Both the position numbers and the translations under genes were made by a program. From an uncultured Candidatus Saccharibacteria bacterium (GTDB lineage Bacteria > Patescibacteriota > Minisyncoccia > Phycocordibacterales > JACNGX01), in contig CAZULS010000001.1 of the NCBI GenBank assembly GCA_964621395.1, positions 64,615 to 128,614 on the forward strand: a DNA stretch of 64,000 bases, given 5' to 3'. Within the stretch, counting starts at the first letter, position 1. Every line of letters starts with the position of its first letter. Below are positions 6,293 to 62,022 of the stretch, piece after piece. The notes under the pieces were generated by a model, which did no database searches, was not told the DNA's origin, and saw only the letters and a list, made by a program, of their open reading frames with translations.

Positions 6293-6293
6293 T

Positions 6294-20298: not shown

Positions 20299-20299
20299 T

Positions 20300-21595
20300 T
20301 CAGTAATTCACATTCTCCATTGCCTCATCGATGCGGAGAATCCATGGCGTCATGTCGCGCTTATTGGTAAAGAGAAGGAGTGAGCCGTCGTCGCTCAGAA
20401 TTGGGTTGATCAAGTCGATGGTGGCATCATACATATTTGGATCAACAAGAAAGAAGCCGGTAGACTCTTCGACATCGTAGTACCATATATCATCTTCAAA
20501 GAACATTTCCCCTTTGTACCACGTGTCGGGATATTGGATAAAAGGAAGGGAAAATGGCACTCCGCAATAGACACCCTCCCCCGCCGTGTCCCAGACACAT
20601 TTTTCAGGAAGTGTATCAAAAAGGAGCGCTGTTTCTTCCCCATCTGAGAAGACTTTTAGTATGAGCGTGTTCCCCAAGCTTTCAGAGAAAAGCACTTTCG
20701 TGCCGTCGGGGTTGACGAGTGTGGTGAGACCATTTATGCCGCTCAATAGAGGATTAAGTGTGCTTGAGGAGAGCGATGTGTAGTAGCTGTACCCGGGAAC
20801 AGATGCCGAGGGCTTTGTGGTGAGGTAGATATAGTCGTCTTCCGCCCAGTCGATAAGCCATTCGGAGAGCGGCGAAGAGAATGTCTCTTTCGGGCCTTCT
20901 CCGGAGAATGGCACAATAATGCCGCGAGAGCCACTTTGCGTTCGCTCAAGGAGAAAGAGTGAGTCTTGCGAGGGGTTGGTATCGAATGTAAGAGTACCGG
21001 TGCGGAGGAATTCTGCCTGAGCAACACCAATGACTTCCCCCTCTTCTTCTGCCGTGGAGATTGAAATGCCGGTCCCCTCAACAACATCAGTATCATTCAG
21101 TGAACGAGTAAAAAGCTGTGATCCGTCGGCACTGAAGAGTGCATCGTGAATATGCGGGATGGTTGTGTTGGTAATACGCGTTGCCTCAAGTGTGTCAACG
21201 GGGATATCAAATATATGTCCGGTCGCTTTTGTGATCACGCGAATAGCAAGAACATCCTCAGCCCCTTCTGTTTCTTCCTGTATTTCGGAGAGAGTGACAA
21301 ATGTCGCTCCTGACACGGGCTCGGGGAATACTTGGGAGATAAGGTCGATAGCGGGTTGAGTGCCGTCACTTGGCGTTGTGCCTCCCTGGGTACCATTCTC
21401 CTCTCCCCCACCGAAGAGAGAACCGAGAACACCCCCTCCTTCACCGCCAAAGAGAAAGCTAAAAAAACCACCACTTTGTATTTCCTCGGAAGTGTTATTG
21501 CGGTTGAGAAACATCATTCCCGCACCAGCAAGGATGGCGACGATAATGAGGATGAATCCCCAGAGAATAATTTGTTTTTGTCGTGCGCTGTTCAT
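20300..21595 (-). CDS. N-terminally membrane-anchored extracytoplasmic protein with a Gly-rich linker; last gene of the T4SS-like operon
   Basis: TM helix at residues 12-30, GGEGGG linker, and beta-rich C-terminal region. Confidence 0.5.
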   Translation of the reverse strand: MNSARQKQIILWGFILIIVAILAGAGMMFLNRNNTSEEIQSGGFFSFLFGGEGGGVLGSLFGGGEENGTQGGTTPSDGTQPAIDLISQVFPEPVSGATFVTLSEIQEETEGAEDVLAIRVITKATGHIFDIPVDTLEATRITNTTIPHIHDALFSADGSQLFTRSLNDTDVVEGTGISISTAEEEGEVIGVAQAEFLRTGTLTFDTNPSQDSLFLLERTQSGSRGIIVPFSGEGPKETFSSPLSEWLIDWAEDDYIYLTTKPSASVPGYSYYTSLSSSTLNPLLSGINGLTTLVNPDGTKVLFSESLGNTLILKVFSDGEETALLFDTLPEKCVWDTAGEGVYCGVPFSLPFIQYPDTWYKGEMFFEDDIWYYDVEESTGFFLVDPNMYDATIDLINPILSDDGSLLLFTNKRDMTPWILRIDEAMENVNY

Positions 21596-32396: not shown

Positions 32397-32455
32397 TGAT
32401 TTCTATTATACAAAAAGAATGGATGTCAACCAATAGGGGTGTGTATGAACAGGCT

Positions 32456-32644
32456 CTTAGAACCAATTAAATAACCTACGCAAAAAAGTAAAAGAGGGAT
32501 GCTCCGGGCAGTCGACGAGCAACATCCGGCATAAAAACCGCGAAAATTCTTCACCATATCTCGATATGGCTCAAAATTTGATCAATTTTTCTGCTCGAAT
32601 GTTGCTCGTCTTTATGCTCCGGAGGTTATGTAATCGGTTCTAAG
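32456..32644. mobile_element. MITE-like element, L family, copy 1 (TIR CTTAGAACCAAT...ATCGGTTCTAAG), 189 bp
   Basis: About 90 percent identical to the reverse complement of 34736-34924. Its right TIR supplies the TAG stop of the lnt-like gene. Confidence 0.7.
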
Positions 32645-34178
32645 GTATGGAAACAATGAGAAGCTCCGCTTTTCCACGGGCGGTACTGTGAGTGATTGTG
32701 CCGGAAGGGTTAATGAGAAAAGACGGTACACCATTTCCCGCGTGGATAAAGTGTCGACCGTGTGTCACGGCGTGGATACGTGCTTGGCGAGTGACGAATG
32801 TCCGGAGTGTGTCGCTGCCGTGAAACGATGAATGAGATGCTGTATTTACAAAAAGATCACTTCCCTCACGCGCTCCGGCAGCGTAAAGTTGTGGGGGTGT
32901 GATTTCCGCACAGAAAAGTGCGGTGATTGTGTAATTATGTACGGAGCCGAGGGTGACGGGTGCGTCGAAAGGATCGGGTGTGTACACGCGACGGTTGCGA
33001 AATGTGTCACGCCACTGGGGAGCGATTGTTTCGGCGATGGTGGCAGCGAAAGCGGGCAGGTATTCGCCAAATGGTGTGAGGAAGCGTTTGTGATATGTGC
33101 CCGCAATTGTGCCCTCCGAAGTGTAGAGGTGGTGTGCCAAACGCAAATCACCGCTTTCCTCTCGGTATGTGGTTGAATCTATGGTCGCGCCCCGAGGTGA
33201 AAGATGGGAAGAGAGAAACGTGCCGCGCTCTTCTTCGGAAAGCGACGAAAGGAAGCGAGAATCTTCGGGAAAGACAAGGAGGTCAAGGGTCGGAGTGTTT
33301 TCGGAGAAGAGCGCGGCTATGTCGCTGTGAGTGTGCTTAAGGGTGGTTTGGGTTGAGCCGAATTCGGATATGCTTTCCGTGTGGATGATACCAATAGTGA
33401 GTGAATCGGAAGAGGAGAGTACAGAGCTGCCCTCCTTTCGAGACAATACTGATGGAACAATGATAATGCCGACAAGAGAGAGGATGATTAGTGCTCGAGA
33501 CATGAGAGACGATGCGCGGTCAATACACACAGCAATTCCCATATTGATATAGACAGCGATAAGAGAAAGGGCCGTGAGACCGCCTATGCTTGCGTACAAC
33601 AGAAGTGATGTGTCACTGAGGGGGGCGCCGGCAAAACCGAATGTCCAATACGGACCGATAGCGGCTTCAGGAGCATACCAAAGAACAGAAAAGAGAAAGG
33701 CGCGGAGGTATTCTGTGAGCACAAAAAGGAGTGTTCCCAAGGAAAGAGTACGGAATACTCCACCTTTAAGCCGTGCAATGAGCCAGGCAAAGAGCGCAGG
33801 GCCGATTGAAAGGACAAGCGTCCCTAAGAGCCATACGGAAGCAATAACCGCATATGACACAACAGGGCTTTCAATGCCGACCCATGTGAGCGGGTATGTG
33901 TCGAAAAACCAAAAAATACTGGCACCGAGCCCGAGGATGCCATAGATGAATCCGCCGATAGCGGCGCGCTTCGGTGATTGTGCGCGAAACACAAAGAAGA
34001 AAAACGGCACGAGCGCGATGAGTGAGAAGAGGCCGGTACCGGGAAAGAGAAACAGACTTGCACTCATCATACCGCTCAAAAGCGGGAGAAGATATGAATC
34101 AGGGCGAGTGAATGGTGAGAGGTGCTCGGGCATGGGTATAGTATAAATGAAAAAGAACAAACAAAAAACGGAAAACAA
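32640..34178 (-). CDS. lnt: Apolipoprotein N-acyltransferase-like protein (polytopic N-terminal domain + C-terminal CN-hydrolase)
   Basis: 7-8 N-terminal TM helices; LLVFPEDSRF (Glu), ALFCAEITPPQL (Cys of the catalytic triad). Confidence 0.55.
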   Translation of the reverse strand: MFSVFCLFFFIYTIPMPEHLSPFTRPDSYLLPLLSGMMSASLFLFPGTGLFSLIALVPFFFFVFRAQSPKRAAIGGFIYGILGLGASIFWFFDTYPLTWVGIESPVVSYAVIASVWLLGTLVLSIGPALFAWLIARLKGGVFRTLSLGTLLFVLTEYLRAFLFSVLWYAPEAAIGPYWTFGFAGAPLSDTSLLLYASIGGLTALSLIAVYINMGIAVCIDRASSLMSRALIILSLVGIIIVPSVLSRKEGSSVLSSSDSLTIGIIHTESISEFGSTQTTLKHTHSDIAALFSENTPTLDLLVFPEDSRFLSSLSEEERGTFLSSHLSPRGATIDSTTYREESGDLRLAHHLYTSEGTIAGTYHKRFLTPFGEYLPAFAATIAETIAPQWRDTFRNRRVYTPDPFDAPVTLGSVHNYTITALFCAEITPPQLYAAGAREGSDLFVNTASHSSFHGSDTLRTFVTRQARIHAVTHGRHFIHAGNGVPSFLINPSGTITHSTARGKAELLIVSIP

Positions 34179-34722: not shown

Positions 34723-34735
34723 GAATGTATTATAA

Positions 34736-34924
34736 CTTAGAACCAATGAAATAACCTCCGGAGCACAAAGACGAGCAACATTCGAGCAGAAAAATTGATA
34801 CACATTCTGAGCCATATCGAGATATGGTGAGGAATGTTAGCGGTTTTTATACCGAATGTTGCTCGTCGACTGCCCGGAGCAGTGACTTCTTATTTTTTGC
34901 GTAGGTTATTTAATTGGTTCTTGG
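34736..34924. mobile_element. MITE-like element, L family, copy 2 (inverted relative to copy 1), 189 bp
   Basis: TIR CTTAGAACCAATG...ATTGGTTCTTGG. Overlaps the last 6 codons and TAA stop of rsmA. Confidence 0.7.
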
Positions 34925-35691
34925 AGCGCTCGTGCGAGGCAATGCCATGCTTCGGGCGATGCATCTTCCGGACGAATATTTGGGTCAATGTTGCATGCAA
35001 TGAGTGTCTCCGGCGAGCATCCGAGATTTTTTACAAGCTTTTTTCTTTTATGAGCAAATCCTGTGCGGAGGATATCGAAAAAACGTTCTTCATCTTTCTG
35101 TGATTGGAAAGGGTCACGCATGTGTTCAACAACAAGCACGGCAGAATCTACCTTGGGTTGCGGACGAAACGCTCCGCGAGCGACAGTGCGGAGTATGCGC
35201 GGCGTGCCAAATGTTTTCACGGCTACGGAGAGAATGCTCTCTTTTCCGTCCCTTGCGACAATACGCTCGGCAACTTCTTTTTGCACGAGAAGTACCGCTT
35301 TTTTCGGTAGATGTGCACGGGTGAAAAACGTGCGAATGAGAAGGCCGGTAATGTAATACGGAATATTTGCCGCGAGCGTGTAAGAGAGGGGTGTGAGATT
35401 GAGTGTTTCGAAATCAAGCTCGAGTGCATCGCCATACATGAGGGAAAACCGCCCACTCTTCTCCTCTTGCGCGAAGCGCTCTTTCAAATGCTCAATAAGA
35501 CGGTCATCTTTTTCAATGGCCGTGAGGCGCGCCCCACCCCGAAGGAGCGCTTCGGTGAGCACGCCTTCACCCGGACCAATTTCCAGGACCCTTTCCTCTC
35601 CTTCAGAAAGTGCGGCGTGCGCAATATCCGCCACCGCTTTTTCAGAGGTAAGAAAATGCTGCCCAAGAGATTTTTTCGCAAATATACTCAT
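34906..35691 (-). CDS. rsmA: 16S rRNA (adenine1518/1519-N6)-dimethyltransferase
   Basis: LGQHFLTSEKAVADIA, LEIGPGEGVLT SAM motif, 261 aa. Confidence 0.85.
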   Translation of the reverse strand: MSIFAKKSLGQHFLTSEKAVADIAHAALSEGEERVLEIGPGEGVLTEALLRGGARLTAIEKDDRLIEHLKERFAQEEKSGRFSLMYGDALELDFETLNLTPLSYTLAANIPYYITGLLIRTFFTRAHLPKKAVLLVQKEVAERIVARDGKESILSVAVKTFGTPRILRTVARGAFRPQPKVDSAVLVVEHMRDPFQSQKDEERFFDILRTGFAHKRKKLVKNLGCSPETLIACNIDPNIRPEDASPEAWHCLARALQEPIK

Positions 35692-35706: not shown

Positions 35707-35906
35707 CTAGAACCAGTCTCACTGAAAATGGCTTGTTCTCGCGCCCAAACAGCGAGCGAGCCGATGTCGCGGAGACCGCGCCGCACTCTCGTGCGGTGCG
35801 GTTGAGCGACAAGGCGCAGCCGCTGTTTGGGCGTGGGAACTGCCAAGCGCAGCTCTTGAGTACGATTCCCTTATTTTTTCAATGTTTTCAGTGAGACTGG
35901 TTCTAG
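35707..35906. mobile_element. MITE-like element, M family, 200 bp, immediately upstream of rsmA
   Basis: TIR CTAGAACCAGTCTCACTGAAAA / TTTTCAGTGAGACTGGTTCTAG; conserved core. Confidence 0.75.
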
Positions 35907-40391: not shown

Positions 40392-40600
40392 ATGAAAGTT
40401 GTTAGAACCAGTCTCACTGAAAATGGCTTGTTCACACGCCCAAACTGCGAGCGAGCCGACGTCGCGGAGACCGTGCCGCACTGCCGTGCGGTGCGGTTGA
40501 GCGACAAGGCGCAGCCGCTGTTTGGGCGTGGGAACTGCCAAGCGTAGCTCTTGAATATGTTTCCCTTATTTTTCAACGTTTTCAGTGAGACTGGTTCTAG
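40392..40600. mobile_element. MITE-like element, M family, 208 bp, immediately upstream of pcrA/uvrD. Flanked by TCGAG-hexamer repeats on the left and a GTTGGTAGTTTTTAG + GC-hairpin motif on the right.
   Basis: TIRs TAGAACCAGTCTCACTGAAAA / TTTTCAGTGAGACTGGTTCTAG; core about 90 percent identical to 35707-35906. Confidence 0.75.
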
Positions 40601-41409
40601 TTGGTAGTTTTTAGTTTTTAGTGGGCGCGGCTACGCCGCGCCTCATAAATTACACTTCCTGTCATCCCGCACTTGATGCGGGATCTCCGCTATATTGTTT
40701 CCAGACATGGTTGGGGAAGATCCTGAATCGAGTTCAGGATGACACAGGGAACATGGGTGCCAGCACATCTGCATTTCATATCATACAAAAAAACAAAGGG
40801 CCCGTTAGAAACGGACCCCTCAGGAGGTGAAGCATGGCATCCGGGATAATCGATATCAAATGACTGATAAATGTCTTAAGTAATGAACATGAGAAAAAGT
40901 AAAAAAGAGGAGAGTGCGTGGCGCCACGCAGCATGTTCAAAAAGAAAGACAAAAATCAACCAACTGATATACGACTATGTCGAATCAAGCTTCACTTAAA
41001 AAAGAACAGGTACAAAAGAGCGCAAGTAACGATAGCTGATACTATTCTCGCATATCTCACGCATTCGTCAAGTGCGATTGTGGATAAAACTAGCCCCGCC
41101 TTTTTACGGGCGGGGCCTGCGACGAACATCTTTGCGCGGGGTTTGCACTACCGTGTGATGCTGCTCATATCGCGGCAACCTGTTTCAGAGACACTGACAC
41201 AGGTTGTGGTAATCGGGGATGCACGTTTCATAACGTTCTCCTTTTACCGAATTTGGGAATTCAGTAAAGGTAATGCAAGGGCATTACCCCTTGTTCTTCC
41301 ATTCCCATAGAGAAGAACAAACGAATTTCAATATAACATATCTAAGACACAAAGTTAAATATATTTCTGCTCAAAAGATTTTCTGTAACAGATGTGACAT
41401 TATCAAAAA

Positions 41410-44674: not shown

Positions 44675-46042
44675 CTATTTGTTTTGAAGATTCTGTGCAA
44701 TGCTATCGATTTCCGCCTGAGAAAGATTGAGTGCATCTTGATACGCGGTATTTACATTTCCATCGTTGAGCACAGAGGACAAATCAAGCGTATCTCCCGG
44801 GAAAATCATATCGGGATCGCCGCTTTCAATACCGACAGCTTGGAGCTGGCCAGGGTTCATAGCCTCAACACGATCCTTTAGCGCATCCACAACATGCGTT
44901 TGCTGCTCGGCGCCCATGGCATCGAATGTGGATTGACCGGACAGTTTCTCTTTGATGATATCCCACACGGTATCACCTTCTTCGACAGGGATGTTGCTTG
45001 TGTTACCTAGGAGACCTTCAACTGCGCTGCTCGCACCATCTCCGACACCGGAAAGCAGCTCACCAAAGAGGCGGCCAAGTAAGACAGTGGCAACGACACC
45101 GCCGCCCGCGGAGACAAGAGTGTGAACATTTTTCTTAACGGTAGAGCGCTGATCGACACCCTCCCCTTTCTTCTTTGCGTATTTTTCAAATGCTCCTTCA
45201 AAAGTTGCATAGAGTGCCGAGCCGGTCAAAACGCGACCCACTATTGCCGGAGCGAAAAATGCGGGAAAACCCGTAAAAGTTCCCACAACAGCGCTTCCAA
45301 CCGCTGCTGCGGCAAGACCACGTTTAACCCACTTTGGACATCCTTTTTTCCACCATTCCCCGAAACGACGTCCGACATTCCACCCCTCTTTTTCTTTTTG
45401 AGCAAGTTTTTCTTCGTCGCGGCGTTGCATTTCTTCTAGCGCCTTTTTGACATCTTCCTGACGCTCCGCCTTCTCTCGCAAATCTTCCATATCGGTGAGC
45501 GGTTCAAGACGGTCCTTCTCTACGGTACCGTCACCCACTTCTCCTTGAGTGTTTTCCACCTCTCCTTCTTTGTCGTCAGTATTGCGATTTTCAAAACCGG
45601 CACGAAGGCCAGCGCCCTTTTCCGTGTCATCCAACGGACTCCCTGCTCCTTGCTCTTTGCCCGGAACCTCAGTTGTTACAGATCCTTGAGGAGGAGTATT
45701 CGGATCGTATGCTTGTTCCGAAGAGATTTGCTCTCCCATGACGAAATTAGACTCTTCTTTCTCGTTCTCGTTGTCGTCGGTATTGCGATTTTCAAAGCAT
45801 TCTTTCAGAGCTGCGCCTTTTGTTGTGTCATCCAACGGACTCCCTGCTCCCTGCTCTTTGGGCACAGACTTCTTTTTTGAGCGGAGTTTTTCCATTGGGT
45901 TAAAGGAGAAGGCGGTCCCTCCTTCTTTTTCTTTCGGTTTTTGTAATTCCTCTTTTGGATTAAAAGAGAACGAATCACGCGGACGTTCCCCATTGACGAT
46001 ATCTTCCAGGCTAGGAAAATCTTTTTCAGGTGAAGACGACAT
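44675..46042 (-). CDS. LysM-domain membrane protein with a tandemly repeated acidic N-terminal region (KEQGAGSPLDDTxKGA...FENRNTDD x2)
   Basis: C-terminal LysM (EEGDTVWDIIKEKL...IFPGDTLDL), a central TM/Gly-Ala helix, and an internal ~45-aa repeat. Confidence 0.55.
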   Translation of the reverse strand: MSSSPEKDFPSLEDIVNGERPRDSFSFNPKEELQKPKEKEGGTAFSFNPMEKLRSKKKSVPKEQGAGSPLDDTTKGAALKECFENRNTDDNENEKEESNFVMGEQISSEQAYDPNTPPQGSVTTEVPGKEQGAGSPLDDTEKGAGLRAGFENRNTDDKEGEVENTQGEVGDGTVEKDRLEPLTDMEDLREKAERQEDVKKALEEMQRRDEEKLAQKEKEGWNVGRRFGEWWKKGCPKWVKRGLAAAAVGSAVVGTFTGFPAFFAPAIVGRVLTGSALYATFEGAFEKYAKKKGEGVDQRSTVKKNVHTLVSAGGGVVATVLLGRLFGELLSGVGDGASSAVEGLLGNTSNIPVEEGDTVWDIIKEKLSGQSTFDAMGAEQQTHVVDALKDRVEAMNPGQLQAVGIESGDPDMIFPGDTLDLSSVLNDGNVNTAYQDALNLSQAEIDSIAQNLQNK

Positions 46043-51027: not shown

Positions 51028-51179
51028 ATATCACAATATAGCACGGGTGGCGGCGGGTGTCCATGTAGCTGAGAGCTTATAGCTTCTAGCTTATAGAAGA
51101 CATACAATAAAAGCGCGCGGTAGCGCGCTTTTGAGTGTCGCGAAGCGACACTACCAGCTGCCACATACCGGCAACCATT

Positions 51180-52639: not shown

Positions 52640-52975
52640 TCAGTTTTCTGTGTAATAGGGGAAAGAAAAAAGTGAAAAAGGCACCAGTCTTTCAAGACAT
52701 GCTCGAAACCGTTCTTGATTCTCTGGACGAGCAAGAAAGTTCCCTAGCCGTGTTCCGCTGATAACTTCAGAAGGGTTGATATGAAGAGCGCAACATATGT
52801 GAGTAACGCCCTTTATAAAAGAACCGCATCCCCTGCCCTCCTCGATATCTAAAATATCTTCTTTCGATATACCAGTCAGAAGAGAGAGCTCGAGTCGTGT
52901 TTTGTCCTTCTTTTTCCTTTCTTTTTGTATTCTTTCCCCAATGAGTATCCTTTCGGACCGTAGGTATATGCTCAT
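52640..52975 (-). CDS. XRE-family HTH transcriptional regulator
   Basis: LELSLLTGISKEDILDIEEG helix-turn-helix. Confidence 0.5.
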   Translation of the reverse strand: MSIYLRSERILIGERIQKERKKKDKTRLELSLLTGISKEDILDIEEGRGCGSFIKGVTHICCALHINPSEVISGTRLGNFLARPENQERFRACLERLVPFSLFSFPYYTEN

Positions 52976-53122: not shown

Positions 53123-55318
53123 TTATCTCCTCTCTCCTCGTCCGCCTCCGTGAGGTCCGCGATCATCTCTCCTCTGAGGGCGCGAAGGCGCTTCGGAAGG
53201 TTTGACACCCTTCTTTTCGGCATAGGTCGGATCAGCTGTTTTGAGTGACAGGCGCAATTTCTCCGGATCATCAGAAGGGATGACCACCACCGGAATCACC
53301 TCCCCTTCTTTCACCACGTCGGAGACATTGCCCACGCGAAACGGCGCGAGCTCGGAGACATGCACGAGTCCTTCGGTATACGGATTGATTTTCACTAATG
53401 CGCCGAAATCGAAGATTTTGATGACCGTTGCATCGAAGCGCTCACCGGGGTGGTATTCGCGGGTCATGTCGCTGATTGCTTCATAGGCTTTTTCTGCACT
53501 GCCGTTTTTACCGGTAATGTAGACGGTGCCATCGTCTTCAATTTCAATTTCGCTGGTACCACTGTCTTCACGAAGCTTCTTGATGGTTTTCCCCGACGGG
53601 CCAATCACCTTCCCAATCTGATCTTCAAGAATGGTGAGTGTGAGAATCTTCGGCGCCGAAGCGTGAATGTCTGCACGCGGTTCGGAAATCGCCTTTTCAA
53701 TGACATCAAGAATGTGCAAGCGAGCCGCCTTCGCCTTTTCAAGCGCATCGCGCAAGATGGCCACGGGAATACCGCCGATTTTAATATCCATCTGAATAGC
53801 GGTGACACCCTCTCGTGTGCCGGCAACCTTGAAGTCCATGTCGCCGTGATGATCTTCCGGTCCTTGGATGTCGGTGAGGATTTGTGTGCGTGATGCGTCT
53901 TCAAAGTCGGTCATGAGTCCCATGGCAATTCCCGCAACCGGTGCTTTAATCGGCACACCCGCATCCATAAGCGCAAGGGTTGAGCCACACACCGATGCCA
54001 TGGAGGTGGAGCCATTGGAAGCAAGTGATTCGGAAACAATACGAATGGTATACGGGAATGCGTCTTTTTCGGGAATCACATACGAGAGTGCTTTTTCCGC
54101 GAGCGCTCCGTGTCCGATAGCGCGACGATTCATACCGCCCATGCGCCCTGTCTCTCCGGTGGAGAATGGCGGGAAGTTGTAGTGGTGCATGAAACGCTTC
54201 GCGGCGTCTTGCTCTTCCATGCTGTCGATGAGCTGTGCATCGCGCGGACCGCCCAAGGTGAGCGCTGAGAGCACATGCGTACCACCGCGGTAGAAGATAC
54301 CGGTGCCGTGAATGGAAGGTGCAATACCGCCCGCTTGTGCAAAGAGCGGACGCACCTCATCCATACCGCGTCCGTCGACACGCTTCCCTTCTTTGGTGGC
54401 ACCGCGGTGAATCTCCGCGTCTACCTGCTCCTCATAATATTCTTCACACAAGCCTTTCGGCTCTTCCGGAAGCGCCTCAACAACCGCATCCATCCACATA
54501 TCTTTGAGTGCATGAAGACTCTCCTTGCCCGGCTTTCCCGAGAACACATACTCGGTGAGTTTCGGCGCGATTGTTTCCGTGAAGAGCGCTTTTGCTTCTT
54601 CAGAAATGTGTGCAATCTCAACCACGCGCTTTTCTTTCCCCACAGAGGCAATGATGTCGCTCTGGAATTTTTCTATAGCGGCGATTTTCTCCACCGCTTT
54701 TTCCAAGCCTTCGGCAATGGCAGTTTCGGCAGCTTGTGATGCGCCGGCCTCAATCATGTTGATATCACCTCCTTTGCCACAGACGGTGAGTTCCAGATCA
54801 CTTGCATTTCTTTCTTCAAAGGAAGGGTTTACGATGAAAGCGCCGTTTTCTTTGGAGCGAGCAATACGCACAGCACTCACCGGTCCATTCCACGGAATGT
54901 TTGATGTGGCGAGTGCGAGAGATGCAGCATTGACCGCGAGAATATCGGAATCAGTATCGCCGAGTGAAAGCACGGTGGTAACCACCTGCACTTCATTGCG
55001 GATACCGTGATCAAACAGCGGACGAATGGTGCGATCAATAATACGGCCGGAAAGGATTGCTTCTTCCGACGGACGCCCTTCCCTTCTTTGAAAACGGCTC
55101 CCTAAGATTTCTCCCGCAGCATAAAATTTCTCTTCATAATCAACGACCAACGGGAAGAAATCGATGTCGCGTGTGGAATCCGACATCACCGCGGTTGCCA
55201 GAACAACAGTGTCGCCGTAGCGGAGGATAACGGAGCCATGCGCCTGGTCCGCCAAATCGGTACATTCAGCGACCATCTTTTTGCCGCCGATTTCCGTCTC
55301 AAATGTTTGTTTTTCCAT
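53123..55318 (-). CDS. pnp: Polyribonucleotide nucleotidyltransferase (PNPase) with an RGG-rich C-terminal tail
   Basis: Two RNase PH domains, KH (LTILEDQIGKVIGPSGKTIKKL), S1 (GERFDATVIKIFDFGALVKI). Start moved to MEKQTFETEI. Confidence 0.9.
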   Translation of the reverse strand: MEKQTFETEIGGKKMVAECTDLADQAHGSVILRYGDTVVLATAVMSDSTRDIDFFPLVVDYEEKFYAAGEILGSRFQRREGRPSEEAILSGRIIDRTIRPLFDHGIRNEVQVVTTVLSLGDTDSDILAVNAASLALATSNIPWNGPVSAVRIARSKENGAFIVNPSFEERNASDLELTVCGKGGDINMIEAGASQAAETAIAEGLEKAVEKIAAIEKFQSDIIASVGKEKRVVEIAHISEEAKALFTETIAPKLTEYVFSGKPGKESLHALKDMWMDAVVEALPEEPKGLCEEYYEEQVDAEIHRGATKEGKRVDGRGMDEVRPLFAQAGGIAPSIHGTGIFYRGGTHVLSALTLGGPRDAQLIDSMEEQDAAKRFMHHYNFPPFSTGETGRMGGMNRRAIGHGALAEKALSYVIPEKDAFPYTIRIVSESLASNGSTSMASVCGSTLALMDAGVPIKAPVAGIAMGLMTDFEDASRTQILTDIQGPEDHHGDMDFKVAGTREGVTAIQMDIKIGGIPVAILRDALEKAKAARLHILDVIEKAISEPRADIHASAPKILTLTILEDQIGKVIGPSGKTIKKLREDSGTSEIEIEDDGTVYITGKNGSAEKAYEAISDMTREYHPGERFDATVIKIFDFGALVKINPYTEGLVHVSELAPFRVGNVSDVVKEGEVIPVVVIPSDDPEKLRLSLKTADPTYAEKKGVKPSEAPSRPQRRDDRGPHGGGRGERR

Positions 55319-55577
55319 GAGTATATGCTCATCGACACATGGCAGCGCTGAAAAAATCGTGAAATCGATTTCAACACCGGGCATGTGGCGATGAGAAAGT
55401 AAAATGATGAATAAAATATGAAAGACACCTGACACCACTTTTACATTTCTGTTCTCTGTATGAACGCAATTAGTTATTGGTTGTTTTGCAAATAAACACG
55501 TTTGGGAGAAGCGAAAGTGGTGTCAGGCGCGCGTAACATGATGGAGTATACCCCAAAAACACCTCACCCAGAACCCC

Positions 55578-55606
55578 TTGACTTTTAAAATCAAGTATGC
55601 TATCAT
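55578..55606 (+). promoter_or_regulatory. Sigma70-like promoter TTGACT-17-TATCAT upstream of gene 55669..56337
   Basis: Seen in sequence, 60 nt upstream of the start codon. Confidence 0.45.
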
Positions 55607-55668
55607 GGGGAAAGAAAAACGGGGTAGTAAAACCAATAATAATGTAGTTTGAAACAAAGGAGATAGTC

Positions 55669-56337
55669 ATGTTATTAGCGTTTACTCTCTGGTTTGTTGT
55701 GTTTGTGGTATTGGCGATTGTTGCCGCGGTAATGAGCAACAGAGCCGACGAAGAGAAGGAAAAGTGGCGCGAAAGGACCTTGAACGGTGTCGCGTTTATT
55801 ATTTTCCTTGCGGGACTGTTTTCCGCTCTGTACATTGAATACCCTGCGTATAACGGCAAAATTGTTGCCGTCAAAGATGGTAACGTCGTCGCTGAATATC
55901 CTGCGGGGGTATTCGAACCCCTTGCGAAGGGAAAGCTTGTGCGAGTTTTAGGGGGAGAGCATAGAGTAAATTACTCCTCTTTGCGTTTTTACGACAAGTA
56001 TCCTTTTGTCGCGGAGCTCGCAGGAGTAGAACTCACTTTGCGTGTGCAAGACGAGGAAAGGTATGCTATCACGCGTGCCGCAGAAGACGGTTTCAGATAC
56101 ACCGTGTTGCTTTCTTTGGAACAGGAAGTGGTTGCACTCCAAGTACGGTACGGGAGAGCAAATCGTGATAATCCTTCTCTTGGAGGATACGAAAGATTCA
56201 TGAAAAGAGGTATCGCCTCTTATCTCAAACCAAGAGGTTTGATCATGACAGATTTCGTGGTCGCTCATTCAAACTTTGAGGATATGGAGGAGCGCGAGAA
56301 GGAAATGGACAAGCTCGAAAAAAGCAGACGCAGGTAA
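55669..56337 (+). CDS. Membrane-anchored hypothetical protein (222 aa)
   Basis: N-terminal TM helices; rest unassigned. Confidence 0.4.
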   Translation: MLLAFTLWFVVFVVLAIVAAVMSNRADEEKEKWRERTLNGVAFIIFLAGLFSALYIEYPAYNGKIVAVKDGNVVAEYPAGVFEPLAKGKLVRVLGGEHRVNYSSLRFYDKYPFVAELAGVELTLRVQDEERYAITRAAEDGFRYTVLLSLEQEVVALQVRYGRANRDNPSLGGYERFMKRGIASYLKPRGLIMTDFVVAHSNFEDMEEREKEMDKLEKSRRR

Positions 56338-56544
56338 TATCCAACAGCAACAGAAATGCCCCCGCAGGTTTCGGCCTTCGGGGGATGTTTATTTGTATAC
56401 AAAAGCAGGGGTGTGCTGTGCACGCCCCTGCTCTTTTACTCTTAGATCCCGCATCACCCACGTCGCCAAGGCTTTGCGGGGCAAGCGTGCGGGATGACAC
56501 ACAACAAAAGGGCGCGCAAAGCGCGCCCTTTTGTTGCCGTCCGC

Positions 56545-57270
56545 TTACGCAAATCGTTTGATTTCCCGTTCCAGCGCGGTTTTGAAATCGCGAATGATTC
56601 TGTGGTGGTCCTTGGGAAGAAACGTTTTGAGTTCCGCGGAAAAATCAATATCACTCGCGCGCAGCGCGCCAATCACGTCGGCAAACAGCTTCGTTTTGTC
56701 CGTCTTTTTAGGAAGCATATTGCGGCGGAGTAAAAAATAAAAATCGTAAAAATCACGCGGCTTTTTGCGCGAAAGAAGTGCGTCTATTTTTCCCGCCACC
56801 AAATCTTCTTCGGCAAGTTGCACGAGCGTGTAGTCAGGAATCATGGCACTTGTGACAAGCGTTGCTGTTCCGCGCGTGTTTCTTTTTCGAAGCGATATTT
56901 CGGTGCGTATCGGTATTGTTTCATCGCCGAACAAAAAGCGCATAATGGAAAGATGTCCGCCACTCGTTTTCTTGACTTCGTCCAGTGCTACATTCGCGCC
57001 GCCGCGCTGCATGTCTTCAAGTGCCGCCGCAATCGCGTCTTCAATGCCACGTACGTTGTTCTCCGAAGCATCAAAATCCAAATCTTCGGAAAAGCGCGGA
57101 CTTCGGTATAAAAGCCGCAGAGCGGTACCACCTTTGAAATACAGCGCGTCAGCGTGCGGGGATCGATACAGCGACGAAAGAAAAAGATGCTGGACATATT
57201 CGCGCCGTACGTTAAGTTCGGACGTGCGCAGCGCGTGGGAAAGACGAGTGATTGCGTCGGGTGAAAGCAT
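56545..57270 (-). CDS. abiEii: AbiEii/AbiGii-family nucleotidyltransferase toxin (type IV TA / abortive infection)
   Basis: FKGGTALRLLYRSPRFSEDLDFD hallmark motif. Start set at MLSPDAI so that it follows the antitoxin stop by a few nt. Confidence 0.75.
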   Translation of the reverse strand: MLSPDAITRLSHALRTSELNVRREYVQHLFLSSLYRSPHADALYFKGGTALRLLYRSPRFSEDLDFDASENNVRGIEDAIAAALEDMQRGGANVALDEVKKTSGGHLSIMRFLFGDETIPIRTEISLRKRNTRGTATLVTSAMIPDYTLVQLAEEDLVAGKIDALLSRKKPRDFYDFYFLLRRNMLPKKTDKTKLFADVIGALRASDIDFSAELKTFLPKDHHRIIRDFKTALEREIKRFA

Positions 57271-57274
57271 ATTA

Positions 57275-57886
57275 CTACGTGAGAGAACGGATAACGGTAT
57301 CGAGTTTTTTTCTGTCAAACAATGTCGCATACGACCGTATTTTATGGTGGTTCAGCCGCGATATGTTCACGCGGTCGTTCATGGTTTTTTTTCCGAGGGC
57401 GACAAAATACGCGTAGTCAACAAGAGCTTTTTCCGGCTCCGCGATGTACACAATGTGTCCGTCAATCGTTTCGGGGACATAGCCTGCGTACGCGCGCGGC
57501 TTGATGGTGGCGTATGTGAATGTTTTTTCATTCACGGAAAACGACGCGGTTGTTTTCGGCGTGACGGACGTGATTGCGTACGGCATCTCGGGAATAATGC
57601 CGAACCGCGCGAGCGCGTATTCGAGAGAAATGTACGAGGGAACGTACAGAGCGTTTGCGATGACTTCTTCCGACGGCATGGCGTGTGCAAGCGCGTAGAG
57701 TCCTTTTTTCAGACGTGTAAATAGTCCGCGCTTTGTGTATGTTTCGAGAAAATATTTTGTCTGCGTCGGCGAAAGGGAAAACAGCCGCCGGATGTCGCGC
57801 GGAGAAAAGACGGCAATATCGTTCTCTTGCAGCGCACGCTGTATTGCCAGCGGTTGATCAAATTTTGATTTGCGAAAAGTGTACAT
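57275..57886 (-). CDS. abiEi: AbiEi-family antitoxin / transcriptional regulator
   Basis: N-terminal wHTH (DIRRLFSLSPTQTKYFLETYTKRGLFTRLKKGLY) and C-terminal AbiEi_3/4-like domain; upstream of and overlapping AbiEii. Confidence 0.7.
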   Translation of the reverse strand: MYTFRKSKFDQPLAIQRALQENDIAVFSPRDIRRLFSLSPTQTKYFLETYTKRGLFTRLKKGLYALAHAMPSEEVIANALYVPSYISLEYALARFGIIPEMPYAITSVTPKTTASFSVNEKTFTYATIKPRAYAGYVPETIDGHIVYIAEPEKALVDYAYFVALGKKTMNDRVNISRLNHHKIRSYATLFDRKKLDTVIRSLT

Positions 57887-57960
57887 ATGTAAACTTTACA
57901 CAAATAATTTTATACCGGTGCGTATGTGCCGTCAAGCGCGCAAACAAAATGGTTGACGTA

Positions 57961-58031
57961 CTAGAACCAATCTCACTGAAAACGTTGAAAAATAAGGAGA
58001 TCATATTCAAGAGCTGCGCTTGGCGGTTCTA
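57961..58031. mobile_element. Miniature (71-bp) derivative of the M-family MITE. It keeps a left TIR CTAGAACCAATCTCACTGAAAA plus about 45 bp matching the right-end subterminal region, and ends ...GGTTCTAA.
   Basis: It is the reverse complement of the right 65 bp of 40392-40600, with a short terminal inverted repeat. Confidence 0.55.
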
Positions 58032-58110
58032 ACAAATACGCTCAGATTAAGGTCTCACCTTAATCTATGTCGCGCAGCGGCACTACCAGATACCAGTGAC
58101 CGGCAACCAC

Positions 58111-58626
58111 CTACCGTCTTTTTCTCCCTCCAATAATGAATTTCTTTGGGTCGAGGTCCATGTCGAGGAAGTCGTCGGCAACCTCCTTGAGTGCCGCTGA
58201 TGATGAACGCCCGAAAGAAACCACTTCTACTTGGGTGTTGTTTTTCAGATATTCCACGAGTGGGACAAAGTCGCCATCTCCGGAGACGAGAATAATGGCA
58301 TCGAGCTTCGGTGCCATACGAATGGCGTCCACCGCTATCCCGACGTCCCAGTCGGCTTTCTTGGCGCCACCGTAAAAAATTTGCAAATCTTTGGTGCGGG
58401 TTTCGATACCGTGCTTGGCAAGGGCGTCGAGGAATGTCTGCTCCTCCCCCGATTCGGTGGTAATGGCATAACAAAATGCGCGGATGAGCTGGCGTCCGCC
58501 GACGGCTTCGCGCATGAGTGCATCAAAGTTTACATTGCCTTTGTAAAGATGTTTTGCGCTGTGATAGAGATTTTGCGCGTCTATAAAAACGCCGACACGC
58601 TGTTGGCGATGTTTAATGATTGGCAT
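58111..58626 (-). CDS. NYN-domain (LabA/PIN-like) protein
   Basis: VFIDAQNLY...DVGIAVDAI...LVSGDGDFVPLVEYLK...VEVVSF. Confidence 0.65.
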   Translation of the reverse strand: MPIIKHRQQRVGVFIDAQNLYHSAKHLYKGNVNFDALMREAVGGRQLIRAFCYAITTESGEEQTFLDALAKHGIETRTKDLQIFYGGAKKADWDVGIAVDAIRMAPKLDAIILVSGDGDFVPLVEYLKNNTQVEVVSFGRSSSAALKEVADDFLDMDLDPKKFIIGGRKRR

Positions 58627-58842
58627 GGATAGTATGTTAGTAGATTAGTAAGTGAGGAGGTTAGTAAAAAGCAATATAGTATCGCGAGCTATCGCCCGCT
58701 CAAAATATAAAAATCATAAAATGAGCTTGTATGTAAATTACGATACTGAGTAATAATGATTGACACAATCTTTGTGTCGGTATACACTATTGATACATGT
58801 GGCAGGAGTGTCACGTGACATCAAATGCGGGGTCCCGAGTCT

Positions 58843-59499
58843 TTACGGCTCGGGGCTCTTTGCGTTCTTTTCCCGTACACGAAGAAATGTGTGCCGGAAA
58901 TTTGCGATATCAAAATAACGGGACAGTGCGGGAGGCAACTCTCTGGCAATGTGTCCGGAACGGGAAAAGCCGATAACTGTTTTTCCTTTTCCCCGCAAAA
59001 ATTTTATCAGATATTCAAAATCGCAATCGCCGGAGAAAAGGATACACGTGTCAAACGTATTGAGAAAGAACGTCGCGTCTGTTGCGATTTCCACATCGAA
59101 ATTCGCTTTTCGGTGGGGCAGTCGTGCTGAGTGATCGTCGTATTCTTTGAGCGGTTTTGTCACCAGTTTGAAGTTGAGATTTTTAGCGAGAAAATATCTG
59201 AATTTCTCATGACCCGTATTTTCAAATGCCGGTGTGTAAAATCGTATTCCTGTGAACGACGGAATGCTTTTGAAAAAATCGTTCAATTTTTTATAATCCG
59301 CTGACCATCGCAGTTGTTCGCTCGGCATATGCTTGTATTCCTCAGGGACATCGTCGGGTCTGACAAACATGTCTTTTACCGATTGCTCAAGATTTGCCGC
59401 GTCGATGTAGACGGCAACGTTTCCTCGCAGTGTTTGTGTAAACTTCTCTTCATATTCACTCATGAGAACAGTATACCACAAGGACATTTTTTGGCGCAT
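58843..59499 (-). CDS. NYN-domain (LabA/PIN-like) protein, divergent paralog of 58111..58626
   Basis: VYIDAANL...DVEIATDA...ILFSGDCDFEYLIKFLRGKGKTVIGF. Confidence 0.6.
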   Translation of the reverse strand: MRQKMSLWYTVLMSEYEEKFTQTLRGNVAVYIDAANLEQSVKDMFVRPDDVPEEYKHMPSEQLRWSADYKKLNDFFKSIPSFTGIRFYTPAFENTGHEKFRYFLAKNLNFKLVTKPLKEYDDHSARLPHRKANFDVEIATDATFFLNTFDTCILFSGDCDFEYLIKFLRGKGKTVIGFSRSGHIARELPPALSRYFDIANFRHTFLRVREKNAKSPEP

Positions 59500-59531
59500 A
59501 GAAAAGGCGCGCTCACGCGCGCCTTTTCATA

Positions 59532-59804
59532 TTACTCCGAAGCCTTAAGCCCGAGTTCGGCAACGACCTTGTCATACGCTTCCTTATCGTGCTTCTTCAA
59601 GTATTTCAAATGTGCGCGGCGATCCGCAACCATCTGAAGAAGACCACGACGGGAGTGATTATCCTTGTGATTCTTCTTCAAGTGGCTCGCAAGCTCATCA
59701 ATGCGCTTGGAAAGAAGACCGATTTGCGTGGACGCCGAACCGGTGTCTTTCTCGTGCTTGGCGGTTTTCTTGATAGCATTGGCTTTTTTCTGTTTCGTAA
59801 GCAT
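59532..59804 (-). CDS. rpsO: 30S ribosomal protein S15
   Basis: HKDNHSRRGLLQMVADRRAHLKYLKKHD...LGLK. Start at MLTKQKK. Confidence 0.85.
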   Translation of the reverse strand: MLTKQKKANAIKKTAKHEKDTGSASTQIGLLSKRIDELASHLKKNHKDNHSRRGLLQMVADRRAHLKYLKKHDKEAYDKVVAELGLKASE

Positions 59805-59914: not shown

Positions 59915-60244
59915 ATGTCGCAAAGAGCGCACAGGGTCTTTGATATTGATCCTGATATGGCCCACGTATCTTGCATGAACTGTGGCGCGGTTACACTGGC
60001 TACTGTAGATTCTAAAAAGATATCCCCTTCCGTTGCTCATATTATTCCCCTGGACGAATTAGAGAGCGTGAAGGTAAAAATCAAGGTGCCTTTTAAAAAA
60101 GAATTTATGAAGACAAAAGCATATAATGGGTATGTAACAAAATGTCCCTTTTGTAGGCTTCAGGAGGAAGCAGAATCAAATCAACTTCTTTTTTATAACG
60201 GGATTATGCTGTTCCCGAAATATTTTGCAAGCGCTCCGGTCTAG
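59915..60244 (+). CDS. Small zinc-ribbon hypothetical protein (CMNCG...CPFC)
   Basis: ORF track; two CxxC pairs. Confidence 0.4.
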   Translation: MSQRAHRVFDIDPDMAHVSCMNCGAVTLATVDSKKISPSVAHIIPLDELESVKVKIKVPFKKEFMKTKAYNGYVTKCPFCRLQEEAESNQLLFYNGIMLFPKYFASAPV

Positions 60245-60565
60245 GGGCGCTTTTTTTGTGTGGGACCATATTACATCAGTTGTCATCCTGAACTCTTGCC
60301 GAGCCCCACCTCGGAGGTCGGAATGGACAAATGAAGGAGTAATATGTCATTCTGAACTTGATTCAGAATCTCATCGAAAAGAAGCAAATAGCGAAGATTC
60401 CGTGTCAAGCACGGAATGACAATGATGGAGTTTTGCACACAAAAGCACGATGGTCGAAGGTCGCCGCGCATTTTTTACCGTTTACATGCCCGAGCACGAC
60501 TTGTCGTGCTTTAGGGTCGTTTAACGTTTATAGTTTATCGTTAGTTTTTTGAGTATAATACCTAT

Positions 60566-61477
60566 ATGTCGCACAATATTGATGAATACATTACGCGCTT
60601 TTTAGAATATGTGGAGATTGAGCGTGGGCGCAGCTTGAAAACGGTACGCAATTACGATCGCTATTTGCGGCGCTTTGTTGCCTACTCCGGTGTGAAGCAC
60701 GTGGAAGATATTACCGATGAAGGGGTGCGGCGTTTTAGACTGTGGCTCAATAAACAGCCCTCTCCCGATGGCGGTACCCTCAAGAAAAAAACACAGAATT
60801 ATTATCTCATTGCCTTGCGGAGTTTTCTCAAATACATGGCGCGCGAGGGTATTAAAACGCTCTCTCCTGAGCGCATTGAGCTTGCGAGTGTGTCTGCGCG
60901 TGATTTGGATCTCATTTCCGTGGAAGAACTCGAGCGCTTGCTTGAAGCTCCCGGGGGGAACGACTTGAAAGCGCTTCGCGACAAGGCAATGCTGGAGCTT
61001 CTTTTCTCCACCGGTTTGCGCGTGTCGGAGCTTGCCTCGCTTTCGCGTGATATTGAAATCGACAAGGACGAATTCTCTGTGCGTGGAAAAGGAGAAAAGA
61101 TTCGCGTGGTTTTCATTTCCCCTTCCGCGCGCGAGGCGGTGAAAACATATTTGGCGGAGCGCACCGATATGGACGACGCTCTTTTTATCCAGCTTGGTCC
61201 GCGTGCAAATGCTGAAGGCGATATGAGGCTTTCGCCGCGCAGTATCGAGCGCATTGTAAAGCACTACGCAATCAAGGCCGGTATTTCTCGTAAGGTGACG
61301 CCGCATGTGATTCGTCACTCGTTTGCCACAGACCTTCTTCAAAACGGCGCCGATTTAAGAAGCGTGCAAGCCATGCTCGGCCACTCCAATATCCAAACGA
61401 CACAAGTCTACACCCACGTGACCGACCGTCAGCTCAGAGAGATTCACAAAGCATTTCATGGGAAGAGGAGGAAATAG
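60566..61477 (+). CDS. xerC: Tyrosine recombinase XerC/XerD
   Basis: R...HxxR...Y catalytic residues (LRVSELASL, HVIRHSFAT, HSNIQTTQVYTHV); N-terminal SAM-like core-binding domain. Confidence 0.85.
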   Translation: MSHNIDEYITRFLEYVEIERGRSLKTVRNYDRYLRRFVAYSGVKHVEDITDEGVRRFRLWLNKQPSPDGGTLKKKTQNYYLIALRSFLKYMAREGIKTLSPERIELASVSARDLDLISVEELERLLEAPGGNDLKALRDKAMLELLFSTGLRVSELASLSRDIEIDKDEFSVRGKGEKIRVVFISPSAREAVKTYLAERTDMDDALFIQLGPRANAEGDMRLSPRSIERIVKHYAIKAGISRKVTPHVIRHSFATDLLQNGADLRSVQAMLGHSNIQTTQVYTHVTDRQLREIHKAFHGKRRK

Positions 61478-62022
61478 GTGAGTTACGAGTTACGAGTTTC
61501 GAGAGGAGAGAGTGGTTGTTTGGGCACGATGACAGAAGAGAGGAGTTTTTAGTTGGTAGTTTTTAGAAAAGGCGCGGCTAATGCCGCGCCATAAGAAAAA
61601 AGAGGGCGGCACCGCAGGTGCCGCCCTCTTTTTTCTCCATGCTCCTCCTGTGTCATTCCCGCCTCCGAGCGGGAATCTTCGCTGTTATATGAGTGAAAGA
61701 TAAGATTCTGAATCAAGTTCAGAATGACAGCAGTATAGATGTTGCAACAGCCGCGCGGACATGAATGTCCGCGCGGCTGTTTGACAATATTTGCACAACG
61801 ATATATCCTCAAAGACAGGTAACAGCTTTTTGAATAAAACGATAAGAGACATGATTATTTTAGAGCTTGGAAAAGGCGGAAAAGTTCACAGGACCCAAAT
61901 CGCCGAAAACGTGTCACTGGAAGAATTTGCGGAAACGTCTGACAGTCGTTGTGTTGTGAGTGTAGACGAGGAAAAGCGAGTGAGAGTTTTAAAAGGGGTG
62001 TATATCTTTTTTTGTTCTCATC

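Follow-up and report, generated by a model that had tools for sequence, protein, structure and literature searches.

Probable strain-specific DNA at three separate points of an rpsO-NYN-pnp gene cluster in a patescibacterial genome

The rpsO-pnp interval

The gene for ribosomal protein S15 (rpsO) is adjacent to that for polynucleotide phosphorylase (PNPase; pnp) in Escherichia coli and Bacillus subtilis, and a genome in which the two lie far apart raises the question of how the DNA between them is to be explained. Such an arrangement is present in the 64,000-nucleotide stretch analysed here (the window), positions 64,615 to 128,614 of contig CAZULS010000001.1 (assembly GCA_964621395.1), from an uncultured Candidatus Saccharibacteria bacterium of the Patescibacteriota. 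The distance from rpsO to pnp is 4213 bp, and between them lie two genes for NYN-domain proteins (NYN1 and NYN2), an AbiEi/AbiEii pair and a membrane protein gene (memb). An initial annotation of the window held that rpsO and pnp are normally adjacent and that a small defence/accessory island had been inserted between them. Its gene list, from rpsO through the two NYN genes, AbiEi/AbiEii and the membrane open reading frame (ORF) to pnp, was confirmed throughout, coordinates included. The reading that we favour, with a probability of roughly 0.8, is that the locus consists of an rpsO-NYN1-pnp backbone with strain-specific DNA at three separate points, designated sites C, A and B.

Relatives were collected by a PNPase search of species-representative genomes and metagenome contigs, which returned 160 loci (PNPase 47–66% identical in amino acid (aa) sequence), all from Patescibacteria of the Paceibacteria/Parcubacteria type. 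Gene order was scored by tblastn of the window proteins against these loci, 138 of which were informative. No PNPase match above 61% was present in Joint Genome Institute metagenomes, and strain-level relatives, about 91–95% identical to the window in nucleotide (nt) sequence, were reached only through protein look-ups with NYN1 and NYN2. Closer matches retrieved through NYN1 point to Candidatus Yonathbacteria.

NYN1 as a member of a class-wide gene cluster

The three backbone genes are all on the minus strand. rpsO (59532-59804) encodes a 90-aa S15 protein (Pfam S15, 4.5e-28), and pnp (53123-55318) a 731-aa PNPase with two RNase_PH domains, KH and S1, which is 94.9% identical in nt sequence to that of L171, a strain-level relative described below. 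NYN1 (58111-58626) encodes a predicted 171-aa LabA-type NYN (PIN-like) nuclease (PF01936, 2.5e-35) whose sequence matches the LabA-like structure 2qip in the PDB (1.5e-25); its NCBIfam matches are weak, with none above a curated cut-off.

There are several striking features of NYN1. First, the same-strand order S15, NYN1 orthologue, PNPase is found in 125 of the 138 informative Paceibacteria loci, as it is in the window, and one of the 13 exceptions (L159) has NYN1 upstream of pnp on a locus that is cut before S15. Second, spacing is tight: the gap between S15 and NYN1 has a median of 98 bp and is below 600 bp in 124 of the 125 loci, and that between NYN1 and pnp is below 50 bp in eight, with an estimated value that is negative (an overlap) in two. 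Third, NYN1 is 52–74% identical to the window protein across these loci and exceeds PNPase in identity in every one of the 125 comparisons (mean 64.0% versus 56.5%; S15, 60.1%). Fourth, D16, D92, D94, D100, D117 and D119, the acidic residues that a catalytically active NYN/PIN-like nuclease should have, are conserved in at least 97% of 121 homologues, the sample and threshold also used for NYN2 and AbiE below. Because the order is so widely fixed and NYN1 is better conserved than PNPase, NYN1 is, as judged from sequence and synteny, a core member of an rpsO-NYN1-pnp cluster and not cargo. Normal adjacency of rpsO and pnp, the premise of the initial annotation, does not hold for Paceibacteria, in which rpsO-NYN1-pnp is the ancestral order, and the synteny comparison proposed to check it (whether the two genes are contiguous in relatives) finds NYN1 intervening.

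Three sites vary independently among strains

Strain-level comparisons locate the variable DNA. In L171, a 144-kb TARA scaffold whose NYN1 is 99% identical in aa sequence, rpsO is followed after 163 bp by NYN1, the hairpin 3′ of NYN1, 40 bp, a palindrome resembling repetitive extragenic palindromic (REP) elements and a terminator block, beyond which are a pair of unrelated genes on the opposite strand (188 and 84 aa), a copy of a miniature inverted-repeat transposable element (MITE), and pnp. L172, from a second TARA sample (NYN1 93.7% identical in nt sequence), has rpsO and NYN1 as in L171 and carries hicB-hicA (HicA, 2.5e-16) between the NYN1 hairpin and the terminator block, the place occupied by AbiE in the window. 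L088, from another sequencing run (90.8% nt identity over 1352 nt), has the order rpsO-NYN2-NYN1, with NYN1 followed directly by the REP palindrome and terminator block and then by a different membrane ORF; it has no AbiE. In the more distant L173-L177 (NYN1 82–85%), rpsO-NYN1 is followed by three opposite-strand genes or by just 395 bp, and then by pnp.

Three sites can be defined from these alignments. Site C is bounded by NYN1 and by a TATACT element that follows the rpsO terminator, site A by the NYN1 3′ hairpin and the REP/terminator block, and site B by the terminator block and a conserved block at 55545-55586. NYN2 is present in the window and L088, AbiE and memb in the window alone, and HicAB in L172 alone, so the three segments vary independently among L088, L171 and L172 and do not behave as one 4.2-kb islet. 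No direct repeats, target duplication or common attachment (att) site are visible at the AbiE and HicAB junctions, whose nucleotide positions differ, and identity to L171 is itself a mosaic (rpsO 80%, NYN1 93%, pnp 95%, a 463-aa gene beyond pnp (orf463) 71%, xerC 91%). Together, the junctions and this mosaic identity suggest recombination-driven exchange between conserved flanks and not site-specific integration.

Site C and NYN2

A terminator-like hairpin directly follows rpsO (59501-59528; terminator scan and fold, z = -4.74), and the TATACT element (59470-59475, minus strand), a -10-like sequence to which comparison assigns a candidate promoter role, lies 6 nt before the NYN2 ATG; in L171 and L172 its homologue stands ahead of NYN1. 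The NYN2 segment extends over approximately 58640-59470 (minus strand), limits set from junction sequences, and contains NYN2 itself (58843-59463, minus strand; PF01936, 2.1e-22), which is 206 aa in its conserved form with the longest ORF reaching 59499. The resulting S15-NYN1 gap is 905 bp, and no other locus has one as large. NYN2 is absent in L171 and L172, and none was detected between rpsO and NYN1 in L173-L177.

NYN2 shares 28% identity with NYN1. It has 315 homologues, and the 120 listed are 56–74% identical with the exception of one 96% relative; among the matches listed only Parcubacteria-type organism names occur. Elsewhere NYN2 stands alone in unrelated neighbourhoods, beside methyltransferases, L10/L12 and Bro-N, PemK, or FtsH. 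Residues D21, D123, E125, D129, D146 and D148 are conserved at the threshold given above, and an AlphaFold2 (AF2) model (predicted local distance difference test score (pLDDT) 89.5) has the NYN fold, with 2qip and the NYN domain of MARF1, an endoribonuclease, as its best PDB matches. There is no match to NYN2 among 50,697 phage records and none in NCBIfam. We regard NYN2 as an accessory predicted nuclease, apparently mobile between contexts and lineage-specific at site C, that would have landed just downstream of the NYN1 promoter of L171 and L172. The initial description of two tandem NYN paralogs is right in that both domains are real, and misleading as to a unit, NYN2 coming from a separate Parcubacteria family found in unrelated contexts.

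Both proteins resemble other LabA-like NYN proteins (PF01936/NYN.COG1432; 2qip, VPA0982) in being single-domain proteins of about 165–210 aa with conserved acidic residues and a sequence or fold match to 2qip. They differ from them in separate ways: NYN1 by its tight class-wide linkage to rpsO and pnp, and NYN2 by extra conserved motifs (PHRKANFDVE) and by its restriction to Parcubacteria-type organisms.

Site A and the AbiE cassette

Site A holds a cassette of about 1.57 kb (56499-58067, minus strand; blastn breakpoints and junction sequences) with the AbiE pair. AbiEi (57275-57886, minus strand; 203 aa), the predicted antitoxin and transcriptional regulator, matches the PADLOC AbiEi profile (1.1e-41) over residues 23–202, nearly its full length, and Pfam AbiEi_4 (7e-06; 26.5 bits versus a cut-off of 25); its match to the NCBIfam equivalog TAA_AbiEi (9.7e-10) scores 38 against a curated cut-off of 150. 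AbiEii (56545-57270, minus strand; 241 aa), with a start taken from an independent gene call (the longest ORF extends to 57330), is a DUF1814 nucleotidyltransferase (NTase) toxin by its matches to Pfam PF08843 (1.2e-27; 97.9 bits versus a cut-off of 22.5) and PADLOC (1.1e-26), with no match in NCBIfam. NTase motif residues G47-G48, D63, D65, K161, R172, D173 and D176 are conserved in at least 97% of its homologues. The antitoxin gene is first, with 4 nt from its stop to the AbiEii start. A promoter-like site, TTGACG-17-TAAAAT (57907-57935, minus strand; promoter scan), lies upstream of abiEi, and between its -10-like element and the abiEi ATG is the palindrome TGTAAA-G-TTTACA (6+6; 57888-57900, minus strand), a candidate AbiEi operator. 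Just after AbiEii is an intrinsic-terminator-like hairpin (56508-56536, minus strand) in a 106-nt segment that folds at -59 kcal/mol (z = -5.45). Pfam, PADLOC, the NTase motifs and the gene spacing all uphold the initial assignment of a type IV toxin-antitoxin (TA)/abortive-infection module; the family is a known one, and the pair is new within it.

In characterised AbiE/MenT systems, AbiEi represses its own expression and neutralises AbiEii, and the free nucleotidyltransferase toxin blocks growth; the type IV TA biochemistry of AbiE was reportedly worked out by Dy and colleagues in 2014. By homology, AbiEi would here repress its own promoter and neutralise AbiEii, which when freed would arrest growth, with abortive-infection defence and/or addiction as the outcome. 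With the AbiE of Lactococcus and Streptococcus agalactiae the window pair shares an operon of two genes, the antitoxin gene leading and 4 nt between them, an AbiEi N-terminal domain of winged helix-turn-helix (HTH) type, a DUF1814 NTase with GG...DxD and K...RD..D motifs, and a promoter-like site of its own with a palindrome by the start codon. It differs in being distant in sequence from characterised members, with nearest relatives that are all Patescibacteria among the matches listed.

The AbiE pair, together with a MITE remnant, is present at site A in the window and missing in L171, L172 and L088 (about 91–94% nt identity), and no homologue of the pair was detected at the locus in 125 more distant relatives (tblastn) or in L173-L177. 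This polymorphism, and the presence of HicAB at the same site in one strain, supports the earlier view that AbiE is inserted or variable DNA. The closest other AbiEii homologues are at most 63% identical and, among the matches listed, the organism names are all of Patescibacteria, and the cassette is for that reason best assigned to the phylum's own gene pool. A proposed check of composition gave a divided answer: the GC content of the region is unremarkable, while the AbiE cassette alone is an outlier in tetranucleotide distance (99th percentile), which is weak evidence because pnp itself is at the 96th percentile.

The borders of site A are rich in repeats. Immediately 3′ of NYN1 is a hairpin motif (58069-58110, minus strand) that is kept in L171 and L172 and has a similar copy at 51136-51175. 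The initial annotation had noted hairpin motifs shared with other loci (58081-58106 and 51130-51170), and these are real: the motif common to 58077-58107 and 51145-51175 gives two matches versus none expected, the latter copy being 3′ of orf463. Adjoining the hairpin 3′ of NYN1 is an ATTAAGG-N-CCTTAAT hairpin repeat (58046-58068), the family of which also occurs at 7255, 11774 and 12193. The MITE-derived sequence (57958-58029, minus strand) was identified by alignment with full copies; it is 72 nt long, 91% complementary to 40532-40601, and corresponds to only the right end, with one terminal inverted repeat (TIR), of a family of about 200 nt. The full copies at 12217-12450, 35707-35906 and 40402-40600 have both TIRs and occur in multiple copies, as MITEs do by definition. 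The supposed 71-bp mini-MITE is therefore MITE-derived, as had been proposed, but a one-ended remnant and not a miniature element. At the right edge of the cassette is a REP-like palindrome, GTCATCCCGCAC...GTGATGCGGGATC, whose loop carries an insertion of 29 nt (56445-56498; junction sequences and fold).

Site B, memb and the pnp leader

The terminator block between the convergent units (56359-56456; terminator scan and folds) contains hairpins at 56404-56432 and about 56362-56385, and is 93% identical in L171, 93% in L172 and 85% in L088. Site B (about 55587-56358, defined by strain comparison) holds memb on the plus strand (55669-56337), an ORF of 222 aa with two N-terminal transmembrane helices. 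A promoter-like site, TTGACT-17-TATCAT (55578-55606, plus strand; promoter scan), lies upstream of memb, with its -35 in the conserved block at 55545-55586, which is 97.6% identical in L171 and 91% in L172. No Pfam or PADLOC family is above cut-off for memb, and NCBIfam has no match to it of any strength; only eight cluster representatives among 1.84e9 have E<1e-3 (HMMER), one of them a spurious repeat protein, and the AF2 single-sequence model is poor (pLDDT 49.8). The site is occupied by memb in the window only, by unrelated genes in L171 and L088, and by no gene in L172. Yonathbacteria L173 and L174, both without AbiE, have a homologue 33% identical to memb in the corresponding place and likewise divergent from pnp. 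Thus a plus-strand membrane gene with a promoter-like site was correctly recognised at the outset, and its portrayal as islet cargo is called into question by this homologue.

The conserved block also has a TATACT on the minus strand, and may be the promoter region of pnp as well. In this strain pnp must, to judge from the sequence, use its own promoter, because terminators and a convergent gene intervene between it and the genes upstream. The pnp upstream/leader region (55319-55544, minus strand; L171 comparison and fold) is strain-variable, and is replaced in L171, partly by the MITE copy. This leader has a perfect 17–18 bp inverted repeat (55424-55441/55514-55531; 251-nt fold, z = -5.3) that recalls the RNase III hairpin of the E. 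coli pnp leader and is not conserved in L171. A separate observation concerns L172, where a gene-less 178 bp (2128-2305) lies between a conserved strong promoter-like site and the terminator block, in place of memb; it could be a small RNA, and it has no Rfam match.

A probable accessory mosaic and its alternatives

We propose that the backbone is a class-wide cluster of S15, LabA-type NYN nuclease and PNPase, with strain-specific DNA picked up in its two spacers. Site C would have gained a copy of NYN2 from a Parcubacteria-specific family roaming between contexts; site A would have gained about 1.6 kb in the form of a self-contained AbiE cassette, which brings its own promoter and terminator and has a truncated MITE and a REP-like palindrome at its borders; and site B would hold a fast-evolving gene for a two-transmembrane protein divergent from pnp. 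Homologous recombination, with the conserved flanking genes as anchors and the dense intergenic repeats as an aid, is the most likely route by which the segments came and went, and site-specific integration seems unlikely. The region is an ordinary accessory mosaic with a standard AbiE module, and reflects ordinary gene flux.

Several points weigh against this interpretation. The GC content of the region is 0.473 versus 0.472 for the window, which gives no hint of a foreign source. Neither a target-site duplication nor an att site or recombinase was found at the junctions or in the region, and the mechanism of insertion is deduced rather than seen. The direction of change (gain versus loss) rests on parsimony with four strain-level comparators, two of them short contigs; the comparators are all metagenome assemblies, in which mis-joins at repeats are possible; and protein functions across the locus are all assigned by homology. 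Finally, because a homologue occupies the same position in L173 and L174, memb may be a long-standing and fast-evolving gene of the locus, not inserted DNA, and possibly lost or replaced in other strains.

Four other explanations deserve consideration. The first, which we think unlikely, is that the present order is ancestral for the species group and that relatives lost NYN2, AbiE or memb by deletion. The position of the memb homologue, the proneness of small genomes to deletion and the lack of visible insertion scars at the junctions are all consistent with it. Nonetheless, the absence of AbiE at the site in all three strain-level relatives and of any homologue in 125 distant ones, the presence of a different TA pair there in L172, the occurrence of NYN2 orthologues in unrelated contexts and the unmatched S15-NYN1 gap argue for gain.

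The second, for which we see still less room, is that NYN1 and NYN2, possibly with AbiE, form a cooperative nuclease anti-phage system. The two genes adjoin on the same strand, both proteins match the PADLOC 'NYN' nuclease model (4.4e-15 and 2.6e-06), and two of the four other contexts of NYN2 orthologues have a PemK toxin gene next to the orthologue or no more than about 5 kb away. However, of the 310 positions in the PADLOC profile the matches take in only the generic NYN domain, NYN1 lacks NYN2 as a companion in essentially all relatives, and NYN2 is solitary elsewhere and has no match in the phage database.

The third is the single 4.2-kb defence/accessory islet, with both NYN genes in it, inserted as a unit between adjacent rpsO and pnp, and this we consider very improbable. 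In its favour, all of the cargo genes are between rpsO and pnp, AbiE is a recognised defence/TA system, and a MITE remnant is present. The synteny data contradict it, since NYN1 is an almost constant and highly conserved occupant of this position in relatives, and NYN2, AbiE and memb have different presence patterns across the strains. The usual marks of a genomic island (integrase, tRNA or att site, flanking direct repeats, GC deviation) are also lacking at the locus: there is no recombinase or integrase inside 55319-59531 in the ORF and Pfam annotation, and a tRNA scan of the window found none, so this is not a tRNA-linked island. Rfam searches of the whole window and of L171, L172 and L088 returned no RNA family of relevance; the sole matches were two tRNAs in L171, a long way upstream. 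A XerC-like recombinase gene at 60566-61477 was considered as the integrase of an islet and rejected, being conserved next to rpsO in most relatives.

The last, an assembly chimera at intergenic repeats (MITE, REP), can be set aside in spite of the repeat-rich cassette borders, since the same order extends over 12 kb on a Logan contig of run SRR8146440 (L081), the exact AbiEii and NYN1 proteins are on both an NCBI 360-kb contig and a Logan contig, and the rpsO-NYN2-NYN1 junction recurs in a different sample (L088).

Nor is the spacer a dedicated defence island in relatives. Across the class, 46 of 125 loci (37%) have more than 600 bp between NYN1 and pnp, and 37 have more than 1 kb, the longest spacer reaching 4.2 kb; ORFs in the spacer are almost all mutually unrelated. 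Pfam searches with 70 of them identified DUF475/TerC membrane proteins, TrmB regulators and single matches to LpxC, NUDIX, PRPP synthase, Pif1 helicase, KAS III, LexA, SET, ComM and others, some having no match; a minority have links with mobile elements or with defence (Fic/DOC, ORF6N, Bro-N, SNase, DUF3800 and a few PADLOC candidate families). In the window region PADLOC recognises only the AbiE pair, the NYN matches being generic and memb having none. The spacer thus appears to be a junction of general plasticity, in which TA or defence genes are present in some cases. The proposal of a small defence/accessory island inserted at a conserved site is not sustained, with one defence/TA module only, no integrase or att site, and a spacer that in relatives is mostly non-defence.

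Rather, the locus illustrates small-scale gene flux in Patescibacteria, with TA cassettes (AbiE and HicAB) swapping at one intergenic site between near-identical strains, and this fits a report that counts AbiE as one of the five most frequent defence families of groundwater bacteria (PMC12259885). The alternation of HicAB and AbiE resembles a small-scale integration hotspot. Like the chromosomal integration and defence hotspots of Enterobacteria and Pseudomonas, site A has core flanks and alternative cargo (AbiE, HicAB or nothing) at one position; it differs from them in that the cassettes are single and of 0–1.6 kb, there is no integrase, the junctions are not identical, and the cargo in distant relatives is mostly non-defence.

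A possible role for NYN1

The accessory mosaic itself offers little that is new, and the linkage of rpsO to pnp is classical; the conserved rpsO-NYN-pnp linkage is the more interesting by-product. The locus resembles the operon of E. coli and B. subtilis in having a terminator after rpsO and a long pnp leader with a long hairpin. It is also alike in that an S15 gene precedes a same-strand PNPase gene (PMC5029454). It differs in that Paceibacteria keep an NYN nuclease gene between the two, and in that transcription from rpsO cannot plausibly reach pnp in this strain. No description of a class-wide linkage of LabA-type NYN genes to rpsO or pnp was found in the literature searched (NYN with PNPase, rpsO or Patescibacteria). 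A survey of the PIN superfamily published in 2017 describes the LabA-like NYN group as of unknown function and its bacterial members as uncharacterised, and suggests tRNA/rRNA processing from other neighbourhoods; PNPase is absent from its text (PMC5499597).

We tentatively suggest that NYN1 may serve across Paceibacteria as a housekeeping endoribonuclease acting together with PNPase, or else may process rpsO/pnp transcripts. In the former case internal cuts by NYN1 would give 3′ ends for degradation by PNPase; in the latter, processing would serve autoregulation, a task performed on rpsO/pnp transcripts by RNase III in E. coli. This proposal draws on a position that is fixed in about 90% of the sampled genomes, on conservation above that of PNPase, and on NYN1 and pnp frames that overlap or nearly do so in some lineages. 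If this is true, NYN1 would be a previously unrecognised core component of RNA decay in reduced genomes. The linkage is relevant to RNA turnover in organisms whose set of RNases is minimal, and gives a testable functional lead for the large LabA-like NYN family (COG1432). It also calls for caution in annotation: in this class an NYN gene that separates rpsO from pnp belongs to the core and should not be called cargo.

NYN paralogues recur in these genomes, since a further 169-aa NYN-domain gene lies about 8 kb upstream of NYN1 in the Yonathbacteria relative L173 (1-156). One metagenome relative has an extra NYN gene within the NYN1-pnp spacer.

Neighbouring genes and repeat families

On its far side, pnp is closely followed in many relatives by the conserved orf463. 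In the window an ORF at 52640-52975 intervenes, encoding a 111-aa protein with a weak HTH (HTH111); this gene is strain-variable, an unrelated 158-aa ORF being present in L171. NCBIfam gives HTH111 weak sub-threshold matches only, and has no match for orf463 or for orf109, a small zinc-ribbon-like ORF of 109 aa (59915-60244) between rpsO and the XerC-like gene that is kept in L173 and L175. The XerC/D-like tyrosine recombinase gene itself (60566-61477) is kept next to rpsO, and divergent from it, in most of the 160 relatives.

The MITE family of about 200 nt has TIRs TAGAACCAGTCTCACTGAAAA and further copies at 20100-20300 in the window and 9765-9913 in L171. One copy is immediately upstream of pnp in L171 and is not there in the window, so the element was active recently. 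It resembles known MITEs in its length, TIRs and several copies, and differs in that the copy within the rpsO-pnp region is one-ended and no transposase was identified in the window.

The REP-like palindrome, GTCATYCY-N4-TNGA-N4-GRATC, is 25 nt long and resembles known REP elements in its 18 copies in intergenic DNA; these are intact copies within 64 kb, versus 0.2 in shuffles. Its stems differ by compensatory changes, and it often forms oppositely oriented intergenic pairs. Sites include 6931-6955, 8821-8845, 8909-8933, 11723-11747, 40661-40685, 60346-60370 and 61704-61728, and the copy at 56445-56498 is degenerate. A further repeat family of the TTCGTATGTTCGTA type is intergenic at 3766-3968, 6247-6302 and 6830-7021 of the window, and also occurs in L172 (1499-1536) at the left border of the HicAB cassette.

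Two larger repeat arrangements lie elsewhere in the window. Long inverted repeats at 32453-32648 and 34732-34927, with arms of about 170–200 nt that are 85–93% complementary, flank a 2.1-kb segment encoding a 512-aa membrane protein and a 191-aa protein; they may be two inverted copies of a repeat element or the ends of an invertible or transposable segment. Direct repeats of 93 nt each (45567-45659 and 45768-45860), 81% identical and 201 nt apart, are probably internal to a coding region.

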